From Conidiobolus incongruus B7586 (lineage: Eukaryota), in contig JNEM01011498.1 of assembly GCA_000697335.1 (NCBI GenBank), positions 1 to 36,279 of the forward strand: 36,279 nucleotides of DNA, read 5' to 3'. The notes under the pieces were generated by a model. It was not told the DNA's origin, made no database searches, and was given only the letters and a program-made list of their open reading frames with translations. The position numbers were made by a program, and so were the translations under genes. The stretch's first letter is position 1, and each line of letters starts with the position of its first letter. This document shows, piece after piece, positions 2,250 through 26,892 of the stretch.

Positions 2250-3794
2250 ATGAAAATTAAAATTTTTACTTTTTTATTTCATTTAAATCGTTTCACTGTT
2301 CCTGAGTCTGACGCTAGTCAAAAATACGTCGTTGGTTACTACGTTCCCTGGGGTAGGGTTGAACCCGAGCAAGTCGACTGGAAGAAGTTGACTCATGTAA
2401 ACTATGGTTTTGGTGTCCTTTATAAAAAGGATGACCCTGCTAGTATTTTTGTAGACCGTTATTATGATGGTAATAGAATTCGTAAGATTCAAAAACTTGC
2501 CAAAGAAAATGGAGTCAAATCTCTGATCTCCCTCGGTGGCTGGACTGGTGGCCAAACTTTTTCCACTATTGCTAAGGACCCTGAATTAAGAAAGAAATTC
2601 ATTAATAATGCTTTATTATTCGTCCGCAAGAATACTAAACCTGACTATGACGAAAATCCTGATGGTTATGACTTAGATGGTATTGATATTGACTGGGAAT
2701 ATCCTGCTCGTCAAGCTGCTAAGTGTAATGCTGTTGATCCCAATGATACTGCCAACTATTTAGTACTTCTTAAGGAGCTTCGTGAAGCCATGGACAAGGA
2801 ATTCCCCAACGATCGTAAATTATTGACTGCTGCTGTTCGTGTACAACCCTTCGATGGTCCTGACGGTAAACCTCTCAAAGATGTTAGCGAATTTGCCAAA
2901 TATTTTGATTTTATCAACATTATGATCTACGATATCATGGGTGGATGGTCTGCAACCACTGGTCCTAATGCTCCATTTGATTATGAAACTTCCAAAGGTG
3001 GTGATCCTTTGTCTTATCGTCAAGCTATTGATGACTGGTTAGGCGCAGGTATTCCCGCTAACAAGCTTATTCCTGGACTTGCTTTCTATGGTCGCTCCAC
3101 AACTGCTAAGGTTGATATGAATGCCACTCCAAATAATCAATATGTTCAAAAAGATTCAGTTGTTCCTAAGGGAGACCCCTCCGATTCTAACGAACCAAAC
3201 TTCTTTTGTAACGAAGGTACTTTCTATTCTGGCGTCTGGAAATGGAAGTATCTCCGTAGTGAAATCTTGAAATCTGACTATAAGACCCCTGATGCACCTT
3301 GGACCCGTCACTGGGACAATGTTACACGTACTCCTTGGCTATTTAACTCTCAAACTAAGCAATTCATTTCTTATGATGACCCTGAATCTTTGAAAATCAA
3401 GGTTGATTATGCAAAGTCTAAGAACCTCAAGGGTCTCATGTACTGGGATATATCTCATGATGTTAATAATGAGCTATTGAATGTTTTACAAGGAATTCGT
3501 GATGGATCTGAAACTCAGCCACCACCTCCAACCACATCAGTTCCTCCTCACACTACTACTACAACTACTTCAACCACCACCTCTGAACCCACTACTACGT
3601 CCACCACTACTACTTCCCCTGGAAATCAGCCCACTGGGGAACCTTGTACGGAAGGAGCAACTATTTGTGTATCTCCAGGAAAATCTCCCGAGTACAAGCA
3701 ATGCCTCTATGGCAAATACATTGATCGTAGCTGTGGTGCTGGTACTGTTTGTTACCAATCTGGAAGTAATATTAACTGTGGATTTCCTCAGTGA
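2250..3794 (+). CDS. GH18 chitinase with Pro/Thr-rich linker and C-terminal CBM19-type chitin-binding module
   Basis: 514-aa ORF containing LTHVNYGF, SLGGW, the catalytic DLDGIDIDWEYP (DxxDxDxE), MIYD, SYDD and GLMYW motifs. A P/T-rich linker precedes a Cys-rich tail (CTEG..C..QC..G..CGAGTVC..C). The exact start and signal-peptide exon are uncertain. Confidence 0.95.
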   Translation: MKIKIFTFLFHLNRFTVPESDASQKYVVGYYVPWGRVEPEQVDWKKLTHVNYGFGVLYKKDDPASIFVDRYYDGNRIRKIQKLAKENGVKSLISLGGWTGGQTFSTIAKDPELRKKFINNALLFVRKNTKPDYDENPDGYDLDGIDIDWEYPARQAAKCNAVDPNDTANYLVLLKELREAMDKEFPNDRKLLTAAVRVQPFDGPDGKPLKDVSEFAKYFDFINIMIYDIMGGWSATTGPNAPFDYETSKGGDPLSYRQAIDDWLGAGIPANKLIPGLAFYGRSTTAKVDMNATPNNQYVQKDSVVPKGDPSDSNEPNFFCNEGTFYSGVWKWKYLRSEILKSDYKTPDAPWTRHWDNVTRTPWLFNSQTKQFISYDDPESLKIKVDYAKSKNLKGLMYWDISHDVNNELLNVLQGIRDGSETQPPPPTTSVPPHTTTTTTSTTTSEPTTTSTTTTSPGNQPTGEPCTEGATICVSPGKSPEYKQCLYGKYIDRSCGAGTVCYQSGSNINCGFPQ

Positions 3795-9196: not shown

Positions 9197-11623
9197 TTAA
9201 TCGACATATAATGTAACAGAGGGGAATTGCATCGAGGGATTAGTGTTCGGGTGATGTGACTGGGATTGGAAGGCGCTTTCAAATGCCATATTCACATCCT
9301 CCTGGGAGTTAATGGTAATGGGATCATCATCTTCATCCTTGTATCGAAGTCGGAAACCTTCTTCAATGTCGGGAGTAGGATAGGCCTGGCCCCGTCTACC
9401 TCCACATAGTCTAATTTTGCGCTCCACTCTTACAAGAAGTTCAGGATATTGAATATTGGATGGTACCATAATTACGAAAACATCATCAAGGTAGTTGATC
9501 TTCAATTTAATCTGAGGACTATTGGACGATTTCATGGGTCCATTGGGATGCCCATTTAGTACACTGGGATCTCCACCAGCAACGTATGAATGGCCATTGC
9601 GCTGGTAATCAGGAAGATATTGATCAAGTACAATGTCCTTTGATGAAGGGCGGGATGAGTACATTGGGAGCTGGTTGTGATAATCTCTGCCATTATGAGC
9701 CAGTGGAGATGAGGTTGGGTTATGAGTCCTAGGAGGTTGGATGTTGGGACTACTTGCACTTCTGTTACGGAATTGCAAATGCTGTGGTGAAAGTGGGCTA
9801 GGGCTATCAGGATTGCGAAGTCCGTGAGAATAATTACCATGAGATCTTCTGGAGTGATGGACTTCGTCATCGTTATATGGAGAAGGTGGCTCAGGCAATG
9901 GTGCATTTGATTTGAGAATTTCAGCCTCTGCTTTAATACTTTGTTGCTTAAGGAGCTTTTTCTCATTGATTATCTGTTGCAAATTTGTAATCCATAAAGA
10001 TCTTTGTTCTTCATTACGACACTTGATAATTAATATCTGAACCTCTTCCTCCTTCCAAAACAAGCGAATAAACAAATCACCACTATCTGATGTTTTTTCC
10101 AAAACCTTCATAACACTGCTCATATTAATTTGACCTCGTATTTCTAATGTTTCATCTGCTCTTTTTCCACCATGTGTGCTATCTTTCCTCTTTTTACCCT
10201 TTTCAGAAATATCTCTACAGCAAACTAATACTTCTTTGAATAAATAAACGAACATCTCTCTAGGTTTTTGATCTTTGGTTATAACTTCAAAACGATCATG
10301 TTGTAAAAGCTCTCCCCATGTATCAACAATTTCATCGGTAATATTGATAGTCTTTTTAGCAAATGACTTGACTACTTCCAAATTTTCTTCCTTTCGCTTA
10401 ATTTCATTTACTTTACCTGCTACTCTTTCAATACTAGCCATTGCATCTAAAAGTTCGCTATAATAAGGATATTCTTCTTCTTTAGTGTATTGAATCAAAG
10501 ATTTCATGAGGAGGGGATATTTACAAATTCTCTGAATAGGTTTAATAAGTAGAGAGGGTAATCCATAGCTAGGTTCAACAATATGTGCTAACGCTTGTAA
10601 ATTTGGTGTTTCGCGAACGGCAATATCTGAAGCAGTGTTGTAATTTGCACAGAAAGGTTCATAACAGGCGAACCCTTCCTCCATGGAAAGAAATAAAGCG
10701 CCTATTCTCTGTTCTTCGGGAGGAAGGATAGCATTAGCTTCAAGACCAATTAAAAATCTACGTTGAAAATCGACCAAACTATGAAGATTAGCAAATAAAT
10801 AACGGATAGTTTCTGGAGAAATAACTTTTCTTTGTTGACATTCTTGCATGTATGCCTAGAGTAATTTTACCAGTTAGTAAGCCTAAAAATCAAAAAGTTA
10901 AATTAAAAAATTTTTTATATACCTGTAGCGTTTCCAGGTCAGCAATATATTTCCTTTCGGTTTCTAATAATTCCATAACTACTTTGGCACGATTGTCTTG
11001 AGGATTACCCATTTGGAGTCTAACAGAAGGGACTTTAGGTTCTACCATGAGGCCTTGCTCTTCAATTTTATCTAAGAGACTATCAGCAGTCTTTAATACC
11101 TACAGTAAAGATAAAGAAAGGTTAAGAATAGATTAATAATGCATACAGACAACTACAAATATAGGGAAATTACTTTTACAAAGGCATTTGTATCATCTTT
11201 GAATAAATCAGTAATAGCAAATAGTTCTTCAGGAGAGTAGTTTAAATTATTTTTGCAGGCCATTAGAAAGTGATATATGGCTTTTTTAGCTGTGTTGACT
11301 TCAATCCTGTCTTCAACTTTTTCAAGTTTTATGGCGTGTTCAGGATCTAAAACGTTATAAAGAGCACATAGACTGTAACCCTGGCGAAAAGCGGCCCAAA
11401 CCAAACTGACTGGGTCAAAATTAGTAATAGGAGTTGACAAGCCCTTAGCATCGGTTTCTTCTTCTTGCTTTTGGAGAGTTTTTTCGGCTACTTCAAGATA
11501 AGGATCAAAATCAGGGACACAATGCAGTCTATCGATGATGCCCAAACAGAGCTGAAAGATAGAGGTTGCAGCCGTGGGAGCAGGCGCGGGCATTAAAACG
11601 CAGTCCATTTGAGGCGAGTCCAT
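9197..11623 (-). CDS. CDC24: Cdc24/Scd1 Rho-family guanine nucleotide exchange factor (CH-DH-PH-PB1)
   Basis: Three exons joined in frame by GT-AG introns: 11623-11174, 11099-10923, 10855-9197. CH-like DPVSLVWAAFRQGYSLCALYN; DH motifs ELLETERKY and LIKPIQRICKYPLL; PH region; C-terminal PB1 LRYKDEDDDPITINSQEDV. Confidence 0.95.
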
Positions 11624-11981
11624 GAGGGAAAAGAATAGCTATGAATAGTAAATTGCTAGACTGGTGAATAAGTTATTGTTACAGTGTATCAAAATTCAAA
11701 ACAAAAACTAACAATCGAAGTGAGCCAATAACTTTGTTATTAGTAATGCATATTCAGCACTTAATTTATTGGGAATTATTCTGAATTAACATAAGGAAGC
11801 AGCGAATTATGTTTCACACAGAGTGTATGATTGGCCTAGCCAATCAAATTCTTTCGAATTATCGAATCATACTTGCGAATTGTGTGGAATGAACATAACT
11901 GATATTACCTGAATATTGTTTTTCTCTCCTTCCCCACTTTTACCTTATATTATATCAATACAAAACCTTATTTTAATACAA

Positions 11982-12004
11982 ATATATATATATATATATA
12001 TATA
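11982..12004. repeat. (AT)n microsatellite upstream of CDC24
   Basis: 23 nt of uninterrupted AT alternation. Confidence 0.85.
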
Positions 12005-13975
12005 ATATTATTTCACGTTAAGAATATAACTTTTTTTAACCTCAAATCATGCCGAGATAATGCTTAGATCAATAGTCCTCAGTGTCTAATCAAGCATAAT
12101 ATTTTGTTTACTTGAATTTAATTTAAATAATGAGAATATGAGTAAACTGTGGAAAAATCTGCAACTATATTCTTTGTTTCATATAAAATACTTGATTTTT
12201 ATTCCATATTTTAATCATATATGATATATGGCGTAAATTTGATAAAATTGGAACAATTAGTTAAATTTGATAATGATTTCATTTATACTTCCTTATCAAT
12301 ATTTTTAATACAAGTTGTTTTTTTTCTAATATGTTAATTAACTAAATTAAGTGATTCAATGCATCTTCCTCTCTCTCTTTCGGTTAATTAGAAATTAATC
12401 CAACTAGGCTCTTAAAAATATATGAGTATTTTTTTACCAATTATATTAAATTATATTCAATCATCAATATCAAATATTCTTCAACATATCCTACAATAAT
12501 TCAATATATGCAACTCGTGACTTTGAATATAATGTAGCCTAAATTCATTCAAAATTAATTAACCTTCAATAATAGTATTATTGATATTATTATATGTCAA
12601 ACTATCGCAATAGTATATATTTGATTCTATTCTTTTTAATTCAATAATGAAAAGTTATAATATGATATTTGCATTATTTCCATTAAAGTTTTGATAATTA
12701 AAATTTTCAATTATTGAGGGTAGTCAAATCTGCTAATATTTATTAAAAGTGGCCAAGTCAATGGCGGCATATACAACTAGTTAACACTATTGGTTTGAAT
12801 TATCTATTGTAGAATGAGATATATATAAATCTATCTATCCAGATATTATTTATATAATGTGTTGTATATATGAAATGATGAAAATTGATTTCAGATAATA
12901 ATAAATAAAAACATCAAGTTCACAATTATTTCTCATTTATATATGATCATTGAAGAATTCTCAAAATCATGAGCTATAAAAGATATTATTTCTTTCAAAT
13001 ATCTGAATATATCTTATAATATAAAAATATATTGATTTTCATTCAATATTGGATTAATAATATAATTGGACTAAATTTTTATTAGAGATTTAATTTTGAT
13101 AATAATAATTTTTAAAATTGAAATAGAATCAATAGATAGAAATCTTTATTTAATTTATGATACATTTGTAACACAAATTATATCTTATATTTATTAATAC
13201 TATTTTAAGTTATAATGTTGGGTTTTAAAATTTATTTATATTATTTCGAATATTATCACATGACGAAATCATGGATATTAAAATTGGTGGAAAAATTAAG
13301 GATATAGGCTAAATTGTTTTTATATTTATATAGTCTTGCTATATATGCTAGATTGAATTATTTAATTTAAAAAACATTTTCTTGTAATGAATTCTCCATT
13401 GCTTTTGTCGGCTATTGAGCCATTTAGAGACATTATTTTATCTGTTTTTAGGTTTAAAAATGATTGTTTAAAGAATAGTTAATACAAAGTCTCCGTATTT
13501 ATTTTACAATTTGGTGCAAGTTAAATATCCTAAGAAAATTAATTAATTATTTGAAACCTATGATTTATAAGTGAATATTACTTTCAGAAAAAATTAAATC
13601 AAATAATTAAAAATATAGTAAATGTATCTTAAGTATAGTATAAATATTAATGATTCACACTAATGGTCAGATAAATCGCCAAATTCTTTAAATTGAATAC
13701 AATATTTAATATATATACAACTTGACAAATATTTTTATAAAGATTTACATCAATTTAATTGATTTATTTTGACAATTATAATAATTTTGAATATTGAATT
13801 TATTGAAAGCATGTTATTCCTGGAATTTCCACTGATTTCGAGAAAACCTATTAATCTTTAATCAAGGCCTAGATATATTATAACTAGAACCATCAATAGC
13901 TGGATATTATTCTATGATGATATTTAGTTTCAAACAATATAGATCAATATACATTATTGTTAACTTTAGTGAAAT

Positions 13976-14630
13976 ATACATAATTTTGCCTATTTTTCTG
14001 ACTCTAAAATATAAAATCAAGATATAATCCCATTAAAAAATCTTTGATATTAAAATAAACCGGGAAAGGTTGATATTATATAAATACCAAGTGGGCTCAG
14101 ACTTTACAAGGTTTTTGAATTTATTTAATTCAATATTTAAGGAGATAATATAATTAATCAAAAAATATAATATACAAAAATCAATATATATCATAAAAAA
14201 CAAAGTCATATATCATAGGCCTAATAGATCAAAGTATAGGTTCCTTTAATATGAAACTATTTAGGATATTAGACCAGAACTTAATTATAAATACTATATC
14301 TTTTGAATCTTATTAGAATAAGCATATAAAAAGGATATCATTGAAATTACTATCATTAACAAAGTATAATCTAATTATATAAAATTAAACTTTTTAAATT
14401 TTATTTTAAAAAACAAATTCCGAACTTATAATCCTTAGTTAAAATATCAATAAAATTAATTAAACCAAAGAATATATATAATAATTTTTTCAATTTGGTA
14501 CTAATTTCTAATATAAAATATTTTGTTATATTTATTATAAAACAATATATATTAAATATAACCTGATATAATAAATAGTAAATAATAAAGGTTTTTGTCA
14601 ATTTTGCAATAAAAAGACTTATTAAATTAT
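13976..14630 (+). pseudogene. tnpA: IS607-type TnpA remnant (MerR-like HTH + serine recombinase)
   Basis: The frame from 13976 reads IHNFAYFSDSKI*NQDIIPLKNL*Y*NKPGKVDII*IPSGLRLYK, cf. TLRRW..GKI..IRTPGG.RRY. KI*YTKIN at 14162-14185 corresponds to catalytic ..YARVS. After a frameshift, 14232 onward reads KYRFL*YETI*DIRPELNYKYYIF*ILLE*AYKKDIIEITIINK, cf. DIGSGLNYKR.GL..LLE....GDI.EIV...KDRL. IIKVF appears near 14582. Confidence 0.8.
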
Positions 14631-14699
14631 CTAAAATAAGAATGTAAGCTTATAATTATTTTATATTGAAGTTGAAAAATTGATTTAATTAAAATTAAG

Positions 14700-15494
14700 A
14701 TATTAAAAACCTGATTATTAACAAAAAGTTATTTCAAGAAAATAATCTAATAATATTATATTTTAATTATATTTATATTATTAATATATTAACTTAAATA
14801 ATTAAACAACAGCTAGATAAAATTGAATTATGTGTTTTATTTTCAAAAAACTAATTTAGTAATTTTTTAATATTCTAATATTAATAAAGATTAAAAGTAA
14901 TAACTAACTTATTTGATATAATAAAAACAAAAAACTATTTTAGTTTATAAATTTAGCATATAATTTTAATATTGTTTTATTTTAATTTGTTTATGAATTA
15001 GAAATTAAAAGATATATGAGGAATTTTATTATTATTAATTAATTCATCACAAGCTGTGAATTAAATAGTTTCAAAAGCAAAGAATAGAAAAAATTAAAAA
15101 TATCAAAAAAGAAATTAAAAATCATATAAGAAATTGATCAAATTAACTATTAAAAATATCATATTACTTTTTGAATTCAAGACTCAAAATATAAAAGAGC
15201 CAATAAATATATTAGAAATAAAAACATATAATCAATTTTAAATGGTATTTTACAAATTCAAACAAACCTGACAAAACCAAAGAACAGAATATATTAGGCA
15301 TAAGGTAATAATTTGTGACAAGCATTAAAAGCAAAAAATTGTAATTACTAACATCCATATATATTGAATCAAGTAATACTTTCAAGTGTCCTTATTATTA
15401 TGTAAAGATAGATCGAAATATCAATGCTGCTAGAAACATACTCGTTTGCTATCTAAGGGTCGATCAAGCTAGTCTTCTAGGATTGGTGTGGTGA
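14700..15494 (+). pseudogene. TnpB/Fanzor2 RNA-guided nuclease remnant
   Basis: 15152 onward reads KNIILLFEFKTQNIKRANKYIRNKNI*SIL, followed by frameshifted W..YKFKQ and VIICDKH (RuvC-II position, E->K). 15381-15494 reads FKCPYYYVKIDRNINAARNILVCYL (zinc finger + RuvC-III DRDxNAARNI). HHKL*IK*FQK and IKKEIKNH lie at ~15045-15130. RuvC-I is not recognisable and the 5' limit is tentative. Confidence 0.85.
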
Positions 15495-15655
15495 CTTACT
15501 ACCTCCTTGGAGTCTCTGTACTCTATACAAAGCGGACAAATATATGATTAAATTTGAATGATTATAAAATTGTAAAGATTATAAATTTAATTTTTGAGAT
15601 TTTCATAATTACAGATAAATTTGTAATAATTGTTTCAATTTGAAATTTAGATCAA
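15456..15655 (+). ncRNA. Candidate (decayed) omegaRNA scaffold / right end of the Fanzor2 element
   Basis: Lies directly 3' of the RuvC-III motif, where TnpB/Fanzor guide scaffolds are encoded. Stems: 15469-15475/15480-15486, 15508-15513/15520-15525, 15609-15615/15620-15626, 15633-15637/15641-15645. The first three contain G-U pairs on the + strand. Confidence 0.45.
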
Positions 15656-26091: not shown

Positions 26092-26892
26092 TCATGCGGA
26101 TGGCTGGATCAGTAGTTTCGGGGAATGGCTATACATGCCACGATACATGGCAATTTGGAACGTGTACATCGACTCTCTCTCGCCAGCGGAGAGCCGTTCC
26201 TCGCGATCGAGGCAAGATGAAATACACTGCAACGAGGCGTCTAATAGCTTTTGTTGAAGGTGGACAGGGATGCGATGGGGTGGAAGTTGGTTTAAGGCAT
26301 AAAATACTGAGTAGCAGGTTTCTCTAACTCCGTTAGCTCTGGGATTTAGCTGACTCTGTTGCACGAGTCTCAGAGCTTCGTTCATATATTTCATTCTTTC
26401 AGGACCTGCTGGTAGAAGTTTGAGGATAAAGAACCAAGTAAACAGACGATCTGAGATCGCTTGAAGTAGATAAGGAATCGTTTCTGAATATTGAGGTGTT
26501 AATAAAGGAGTAAATACATCTTTCTCAAGTTGTATCATCATGAACTTGGTACGATTCTGCCATATTGTTTCGGGGAAAAAGTCTGAAAAGTTTTCAGTTT
26601 GAGTAGAATGCTGCTTTTTAACAGTTTGAACCGCTTTGACAAAGCTAACATGAGTTGGGGGTGGCGAAGGTGGAGCAGATAAAGAAGAGCAAGATGAAGT
26701 GGGTGTGATGGGGAGGTGGGCAGTGGGTTCGGGGGCTTCGTGAGCCTTTTGAACAGAAGGTCTCTTTTTGGGTAGAGGGGGACGGGCACAAGATTGGGAC
26801 CTTCTCAAAGAAGACTTATCTCCACTAAAGACAGGATCATTCTTATTTTTTTTGTGGAATAAATCGGTGAATCGATTGGTCAAGTTGAGCAT
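26092..26892 (-). CDS. Hypothetical protein (266 aa; Pro/Ser-rich N-terminus, helical C-terminal region)
   Basis: Intronless ORF with coding-like GC content against AT-rich flanks. The first in-frame ATG is at 26892. No family recognised. Confidence 0.8.
   Translation of the reverse strand: MLNLTNRFTDLFHKKNKNDPVFSGDKSSLRRSQSCARPPLPKKRPSVQKAHEAPEPTAHLPITPTSSCSSLSAPPSPPPTHVSFVKAVQTVKKQHSTQTENFSDFFPETIWQNRTKFMMIQLEKDVFTPLLTPQYSETIPYLLQAISDRLFTWFFILKLLPAGPERMKYMNEALRLVQQSQLNPRANGVRETCYSVFYALNQLPPHRIPVHLQQKLLDASLQCISSCLDREERLSAGERESMYTFQIAMYRGMYSHSPKLLIQPSA

Follow-up and report, generated by a model that had tools for sequence, protein, structure and literature searches.

An alignment-based reading of the AT-rich gap between CDC24 and LYAR in the window (the whole stretch of DNA analyzed, 36,279 nucleotides) indicates that it very probably holds a dead, single-copy IS607EU relic in an early-diverging fungus, with a tnpA that overlaps the Fanzor2 gene downstream of it and with horizontal transfer as its likely origin. 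The first-pass annotation had proposed an element of the IS607 type, with a serine-recombinase tnpA and Fanzor2, in a fungal chromosome. This architecture is borne out by colinear, significant alignments of both genes, and the chromosomal setting by the position of the element between two fungal genes (Table 1).

Table 1. Positions of the relic, its recognizable parts and its flanking genes in the window.
Feature	Position	Strand	Basis
CDC24	ends at 11623	minus	Pfam CDC24, RhoGEF, PH, PB1
Decayed tnpA	13988..14445	+	tblastn/HMMER/codon-decay; 16-18 stops, 1-2 frameshifts
MerR-like HTH of tnpA	about 14030-14115	+	followed by serine-recombinase catalytic domain
Fanzor2 N-terminal trace, +1 frame inside tnpA	14037..14434	+	block alignment, geometry, stop count
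HTH piece	14045-14110	+	six-frame read
YTKIN (YARVS equivalent)	14171	+	six-frame read
DIRPELNYK	14262	+	six-frame read
FWN..LWLP equivalent	14266-14362	+	+1 frame of tnpA
NSWF/RuvC-R equivalent, decayed	14423-14434	+	+1 frame of tnpA
Fanzor2 middle (REC/WED/RuvC-I), shortened, heavily decayed	14446..15045	+	12% GC
Fanzor2 C-terminal half: bridge helix/RuvC-II, zinc finger, RuvC-III	15046..15490	+	tblastn, HMMER, codon-decay, PF07282
IILLFEFKTQ	15158	+	six-frame read
YKFKQ	15251	+	six-frame read
VIICD	15305-15319	+	six-frame read
FKCP	15384	+	six-frame read
IDRNINAARNIL	15408-15443	+	six-frame read
Expected omegaRNA/right-end region	15455..15595	+	position by analogy with relatives
LYAR	from about 16285		PF08790 E=1e-15

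All motifs that had been named for the element were recovered in a six-frame read, on the plus strand and in the order given for them. The Pfam scan alone was weak (PF07282, E=0.023, below the cut-off), and the NCBIfam scan of the window had no match in the element. Used as direct queries, pieces of the window found nothing significant by word search, in viral contigs or in PDB, nor did phmmer against 1.84 billion representative proteins. One plasmid search returned nine weak matches (E 3-10, five of them annotated as TnpB) and the others none; no exact match came up for three ORFs from the window or for three from loci. Intact relatives were fetched by degenerate patterns for E-x-Y-T-S-K-T-C, which we take to be a Fanzor2 motif, and then by homology. 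The motif agrees with the accessible parts of two earlier studies (PMC3627910; 10.1101/2023.08.09.552727). Pattern searches yielded 28 and 13 viral loci and 86 metagenome loci, to which homology added further proteins and loci. Some patterns were shaped on the VIICD of the window, and the match at this motif was therefore favored and is not independent evidence. When the 2151 fetched ORFs and proteins were compared with the window by tblastn, 103 HSPs had E<=0.01; 96 of these lay between 13900 and 15700, the best with E 3.6e-9. Profiles built from 35 TnpA and 36 Fanzor2 sequences were run with hmmsearch on the six-frame translation of the 36 kb and gave iE values of 6e-4 and 0.01 for TnpA and of 9e-8 and 2e-4 for Fanzor2, all within the element, which is all that these profiles match below E 0.7.

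A frameshift-aware translated search against TnpA and Fanzor profiles had been proposed as a check, with compositional bias as the explanation to be feared. We used a frameshift-aware codon model with AT-biased decay (codon-decay alignment), and the result was colinear and significant. TnpA scored 47-49 bits over about 150 codons at 13988-14445 (0 of 60 shuffles as high, maximum 26; 26 other window tiles, maximum 24 bits) and Fanzor2 75-81 bits at 15068-15490 (0/60 shuffles, maximum 33; tiles, maximum 38), i.e., both genes outscored every shuffled control and tile, which speaks against compositional bias. The significance of TnpA is limited to this scoring and to HMMER, since it was near background in two simpler amino-acid scorings: the first gave 16.8 bits, with 2 of 100 shuffles and several tiles equally high, and the second 18.8-18.9 bits, with tiles up to 27. 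Fanzor2 exceeded all shuffles in both simple scorings; one tile outscored it in the first, for which the background was not tile-matched. A second copy was not found inside the 36 kb window (48 tiles; best other tile 36 versus 80 bits).

Though decayed, the tnpA region shows the order of MerR-like HTH and serine recombinase that is typical of IS607 TnpA, and the TnpA proteins of the relatives score above the NF033518 IS607 transposase cut-off of NCBIfam. The catalytic Ser position is occupied by Asn (14183) and the neighboring Arg by Lys; of the eight single-base substitutions affecting conserved TnpA sites, five are G>A or C>T. The TnpA tree gave no firm placement (end branch 3.16). Both genes are colinear on the same strand, and the distance from YARVS to RNI is 1261 nt versus 1492-1807 nt in 19 subfamily loci, relative to which 230-550 nt are missing. 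In the middle of Fanzor2, a weak trace was seen at 14820-14905 (profile 12.4 bits, 13-14 of 200 shuffles equally high; single relatives 18-19 bits versus 0-2/200 shuffles). The DPG motif of RuvC-I, invariant among relatives, is unrecognizable in this copy, its region being deleted or unalignable. A hallmark of Fanzor2 is that the RuvC-II Glu has moved to a site some six residues ahead of the zinc finger, and in the alignments of three relatives this site falls at 15320, where the residue is now Lys. The C4 zinc finger retains two of its four Cys, and the catalytic Asp position of the RuvC-III RD motif is Asn (15417). That the copy is dead, as first claimed, is confirmed by the replacements at these three catalytic sites and by the 16-18 stops in tnpA; it likely has no function at present, and its stop densities are compatible with neutral decay. 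Identity as Fanzor1 was considered and rejected, since the partner is a serine recombinase, unlike the DDE/Helitron-type carriers of Fanzor1, and the fold of a relative ranks ApmFz2 first (E 1e-23) and SpuFz1 48th (E 9e-5); the trees described below held no Fanzor1 rows.

The gap harboring the element has 12-24% GC and is flanked on both sides by intron-bearing fungal genes. For CDC24, the nearest clusters tie between Mucoromycota and Ascomycota (0.89). The AT-rich 2.3 kb separating CDC24 from the element (11700-13980) contain no ORF of 80 aa; the left end of the element lies somewhere within this stretch, the remainder of which is unexplained. Elsewhere in the window, positions 2250-3794 encode a GH18 chitinase with a C-terminal CBM19-like domain, whose two nearest clusters are from Zoopagomycota (0.95) and whose ORF start is probably intronic, and a 266-codon ORF on the minus strand (26092-26892) has no Pfam match. 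Going by the chitinase and CDC24, the host is an early-diverging fungus, perhaps one of the Zoopagomycota.

Placement in a TnpB/Fanzor tree, also proposed beforehand, assigns the window to a Fanzor2 subfamily whose members come from giant viruses and metagenome contigs. Among 347 distinct TnpB/Fanzor C-termini scored, the nearest relatives are metagenomic (P0122, P0130, P0124, P0129, and P0123), with identities of up to 43% over 102 columns. Quick IQ-TREE trees were calculated for 96, 93 and 37 rows, which were selected either manually or through de-duplication; the 93-row tree omits three long rows. The window has a long branch and groups with its nearest relatives in profile-guided as well as fixed-frame reads, apart from the cyanobacterial pro-Fanzors, supported by a 97-starred triple and, in the fixed-frame tree, a 39-row starred clade. 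Search and tree both place Diversispora epigaea P0211 in the subfamily clade, which also contains loci beside an NCLDV capsid gene and a VLTF3 gene (8 of 12 neighbor genes with a Pfam match). By sequence, the best PDB match of the subfamily is ApmFz2 (9B0L; E 5e-34, and 1e-58 in a second search). Many members of the subfamily are found on contigs of about 2 kb that contain little besides the element (L073, 2007 nt; L113, 2158; L093, 2232; L075, 1959; L199; L200), as would be expected if the elements were multi-copy and recently active; some such contigs are binned into bacterial MAGs. Fanzor2 variants with long insertions were also observed (L065:341-3088 and L072:2327-3250), with an ORF of 916 codons and a coiled-coil-like insert after RuvC-I; L072 adjoins a CRAL/TRIO gene, suggesting a eukaryotic host.

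The two-gene layout of the first-pass annotation holds for the order of tnpA and Fanzor2, but the overlap of the genes had been missed. In all 56 same-strand loci with upstream tnpA (out of 88 distinct Fanzor-type ORFs), the nuclease ORF lies in the +1 frame of tnpA, where it is open across 416-1115 nt. In 39 of 41 tandem Fanzor loci, no stop interrupts the +1 frame within the first 300 nt past YARVS; the corresponding counts are 0/41 for the +2 frame and 0/6 for opposite-strand loci. Of six further tandem loci failing the motif filter, four are open and the other two, the canonical ones (L007, L015), are closed in the +1 frame, which is also open in 11 of 13 loci without a recognized nuclease. 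The +1 frame of the relatives encodes FWN..LWLP..NSWF, and in a 73-sequence profile NSWF aligns to Asn82-Ser83-Trp84 of ApmFz2, residues in RuvC-R that contact the omegaRNA pseudoknot (PMC11832414). An AlphaFold model of P0128, for which the overlap is inferred from shared motifs, is mostly ordered over residues 86-135 and disordered before. Superposition on 9B0L gave Z 25.7 and rmsd 4.2 for 423 aligned residues (model 85-562 on chain 53-518, these being range ends only), and plain TnpBs align only from about residue 180 in the same comparison. Tandem loci with RuvC-R encoded inside tnpA in the +1 frame are bacterial as well as viral (including L075, L113, L032, L050, and L201-L223), and opposite-strand elements keep the SW[FY] motif free of tnpA. 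Mimivirus tnpA is presumably on the opposite strand too, like that of loci L012 and L018, so that the N-terminal domain of ApmFz2 would not be overprinted. When the overprinted segment was made into a profile, its scores on the N-termini of seven opposite-strand Fanzor2 proteins stayed within the range of shuffles (maximum 2.6, shuffles 5.1); its best match is the N-terminal SW[FY] site in five of the seven. Because tandem elements of cyanobacteria and viruses alike encode RuvC-R, a domain that plain TnpB lacks, within tnpA, these sequence comparisons suggest that RuvC-R of Fanzor2 arose by overprinting on tnpA. Such overprinting was not found in the literature searched, including a full-text search for IS607 with overprinting; subscription papers might describe the overlap.

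The window keeps the geometry of this overlap, with 140 nt from the Tyr of YARVS versus 139 in most relatives. Its +1 frame has 8-9 stops versus about 20 expected from a single-coded tnpA, and in stop simulations without indels a dual-coded ancestor fits (P 0.14-0.58), whereas a single-coded one does not (P about 0.003). The +1-frame trace reached 16.3 bits in block alignment (shuffle maximum 11.3, 0/100), a score not independent of the tnpA homology. The overlap of tnpA and Fanzor2 comes to several hundred bases in the relatives and apparently in the fossil as well, which suggests that the overprinted layout also reached a fungal chromosome.

The relatives end in a structured region, whose limit is sharp and falls some 140-195 nt past the RNIL codon. 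Candidate right ends of the window copy are near 15534 (AAAGCG, resembling the termini of several relatives) and about 15593, in a region with a GC-richer stretch and a fold z of -1.45. Rfam gave no omegaRNA match in the window, and neither did models R1 (sequence-only) and R2 (9-pair), both built on poor MAFFT alignments, so that these results do not argue for its absence. In local DNA alignment, 133 of 300 shuffles were as good as the GC-rich part of the right end, and the lone score above shuffles is an AT-rich match to L008. A search of the window for ends with direct repeats or a G-rich core found only AT-rich, chance-like repeats. Right ends of four intact relatives (L104:95-224, L084:250-392, L120:126-250, and L073:1872-2007) fold strongly (z -4.5 to -5.5) and are candidate omegaRNAs; common to them are a TTGRGNC motif, three hairpins and a terminus similar to AAGCG.

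Judging from what is accessible on the family (PMC13565253; 10.1101/2023.08.09.552727; PMC11832414), a live TnpA would excise the element and insert it at a short G-rich core, leaving the target unduplicated. An omegaRNA would be transcribed across the right end, and Fanzor2 together with it would cut the empty donor site, repair of which would restore the element. The N-terminal domain of Fanzor2, with the RuvC-R residues that in ApmFz2 hold the omegaRNA pseudoknot, would be translated from the +1 frame inside tnpA. By analogy, the Fanzor2 of the fossil was likely an RNA-guided nuclease when alive. Insertion would have been followed by neutral decay, mostly through G/C-to-A/T changes and small deletions.

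Other explanations have to be weighed against such a relic. Chance motifs in AT-rich DNA would be in keeping with the lack of significant matches for window pieces on their own (Pfam/NCBIfam, phmmer, word searches), but both genes occur in the right order, strand and spacing and above all shuffles and tiles; the codon-decay alignment refutes chance, which we consider extremely improbable. It also seems quite unlikely that the Fanzor2 frame remained under selection after the death of tnpA, be it as a non-autonomous homing element or through brief domestication. In a post-hoc sub-span of about 110 codons, the tnpA frame has 14 stops versus 2 in the +1 frame (P 0.002-0.01, neutral simulations); however, alignment-defined bounds give 16-18 versus 8-9 stops (P 0.07-0.10), the number of C-terminal stops, 7 in 145, is in line with neutral decay, the middle of Fanzor is most decayed and all three catalytic positions are lost.

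Concerning descent, direct transfer of a bacterial IS607 of the cyanobacterial pro-Fanzor kind, which would make the nuclease a "TnpB" rather than a "Fanzor2", is very unlikely. Tandem, overlapping genes are likewise the arrangement in cyanobacterial elements, and an AU test (37 rows) did not reject a group of the window and three cyanobacterial pro-Fanzors (p=0.16). Nevertheless, three trees and the pairwise scores favor the eukaryote/virus subfamily, and the constrained cyanobacterial grouping is 15.4 lnL worse. Finally, the same relic may never have transposed in the fungus, having come as a passenger on foreign DNA, such as that of a giant virus, or through segmental transfer. We consider this unlikely: the ORF list of the window has no viral ORF of at least 80 aa flanking the element, and the nearest named relatives are fungal (Glomeromycotina). 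On the other hand, close relatives lie on giant-virus contigs, the 36 kb hold one copy only, about 2.3 kb of AT-rich DNA to the left are unexplained, and segmental duplication accounts for many eukaryotic IS607-like copies, for which transposition was not proven (PMC3673617, as far as accessible).

Beyond the decayed IS607EU element favored here, a dual-coded IS607-Fanzor2 family may once have been active in a Zoopagomycota lineage, which it would have reached from another fungal phylum or from a giant virus, but this is unlikely. If true, live sisters in the lineage would offer an uncharacterized programmable nuclease and a view of eukaryotic two-frame translation. The fossil itself adds one more dead copy, perhaps in a new fungal phylum, to the patchy spread of IS607EU/Fanzor2. 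No tool is to be gained from it, because better intact subfamily members are public (P0128, P0135, P0244, P0246, L075, L093, and L113). Of wider interest is the general overprinting of RuvC-R in tnpA rather than this locus.

The literature searched yielded no Fanzor2 record for Zoopagomycota, though subscription papers, Repbase and bioRxiv supplements might add hosts. Full-text searches for Fanzor with Mucoromycota, IS607 with Rhizophagus, and Fanzor with Entomophthor gave nothing, and the accessible supplements of PMC10530073 had no match for the six fungal names queried. The accessible tables of PMC10711439 contain no rows for Conidiobolus, Basidiobolus, Entomophthora, Smittium or Massospora. 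Their Zoopagomycota rows, among those listed (11 of 26 Syncephalis, 11 of 18 Coemansia, one each for Piptocephalis and Dimargaris), are Fanzor1-like or unrelated, as judged by eye. A link to fungal killer plasmids was rejected, as the part of PMC13348850 available to us does not mention IS607, TnpB or Fanzor.

The invasion by a two-gene element proposed at first stands as to its IS607-Fanzor2 architecture but not as to novelty, since the kind is already listed, in Tables S2/S3 of PMC10711439 (2023), for Diversispora, Racocetra, Gigaspora and Rhizophagus. These Glomeromycotina sequences of the Fanzor2/IS607 type (Diversispora epigaea RHZ56817.1, RHZ56880.1, and P0211; Racocetra persica CAG8798034.1; Gigaspora margarita KAF0520634.1 and CAG8619909.1; Rhizophagus irregularis) are of the same subfamily as the fossil, going by the CKVIICDE..TSKTC and AARNILLR motifs common to the rows seen, judged by eye and not aligned. 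Like the fossil, they are mostly broken, but the fossil is more decayed; one Gigaspora model apparently starts with a TnpA tail. The host differs, being probably a member of Zoopagomycota or of another Mucoromycota group. Descriptions of fungal IS607-like relics date from 2013, and those of yeasts, Ustilago, oomycetes and Acanthamoeba are patchy, mostly broken and without TIR/TSD; no zygomycete-grade host was found in the accessible parts of these reports (PMC3673617; PMC3627910). Cyanobacterial pro-Fanzor IS607 elements (ISArma1-like; 10.1101/2023.08.09.552727, accessible part) have an upstream serine-recombinase tnpA, an overlapping +1 frame, DPG and the shifted Glu, but are prokaryotic and form a separate tree branch. 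The best solved match is ApmFz2 (L79) from the ISvMimi IS607 element of Acanthamoeba polyphaga mimivirus (PMC11832414; PMC10530073, both in part), which has the shifted RuvC-II Glu, the zinc finger and the N-terminal RuvC-R in common with the subfamily. Unlike the fossil, ApmFz2 is active, and it is only about 23% identical to P0128.
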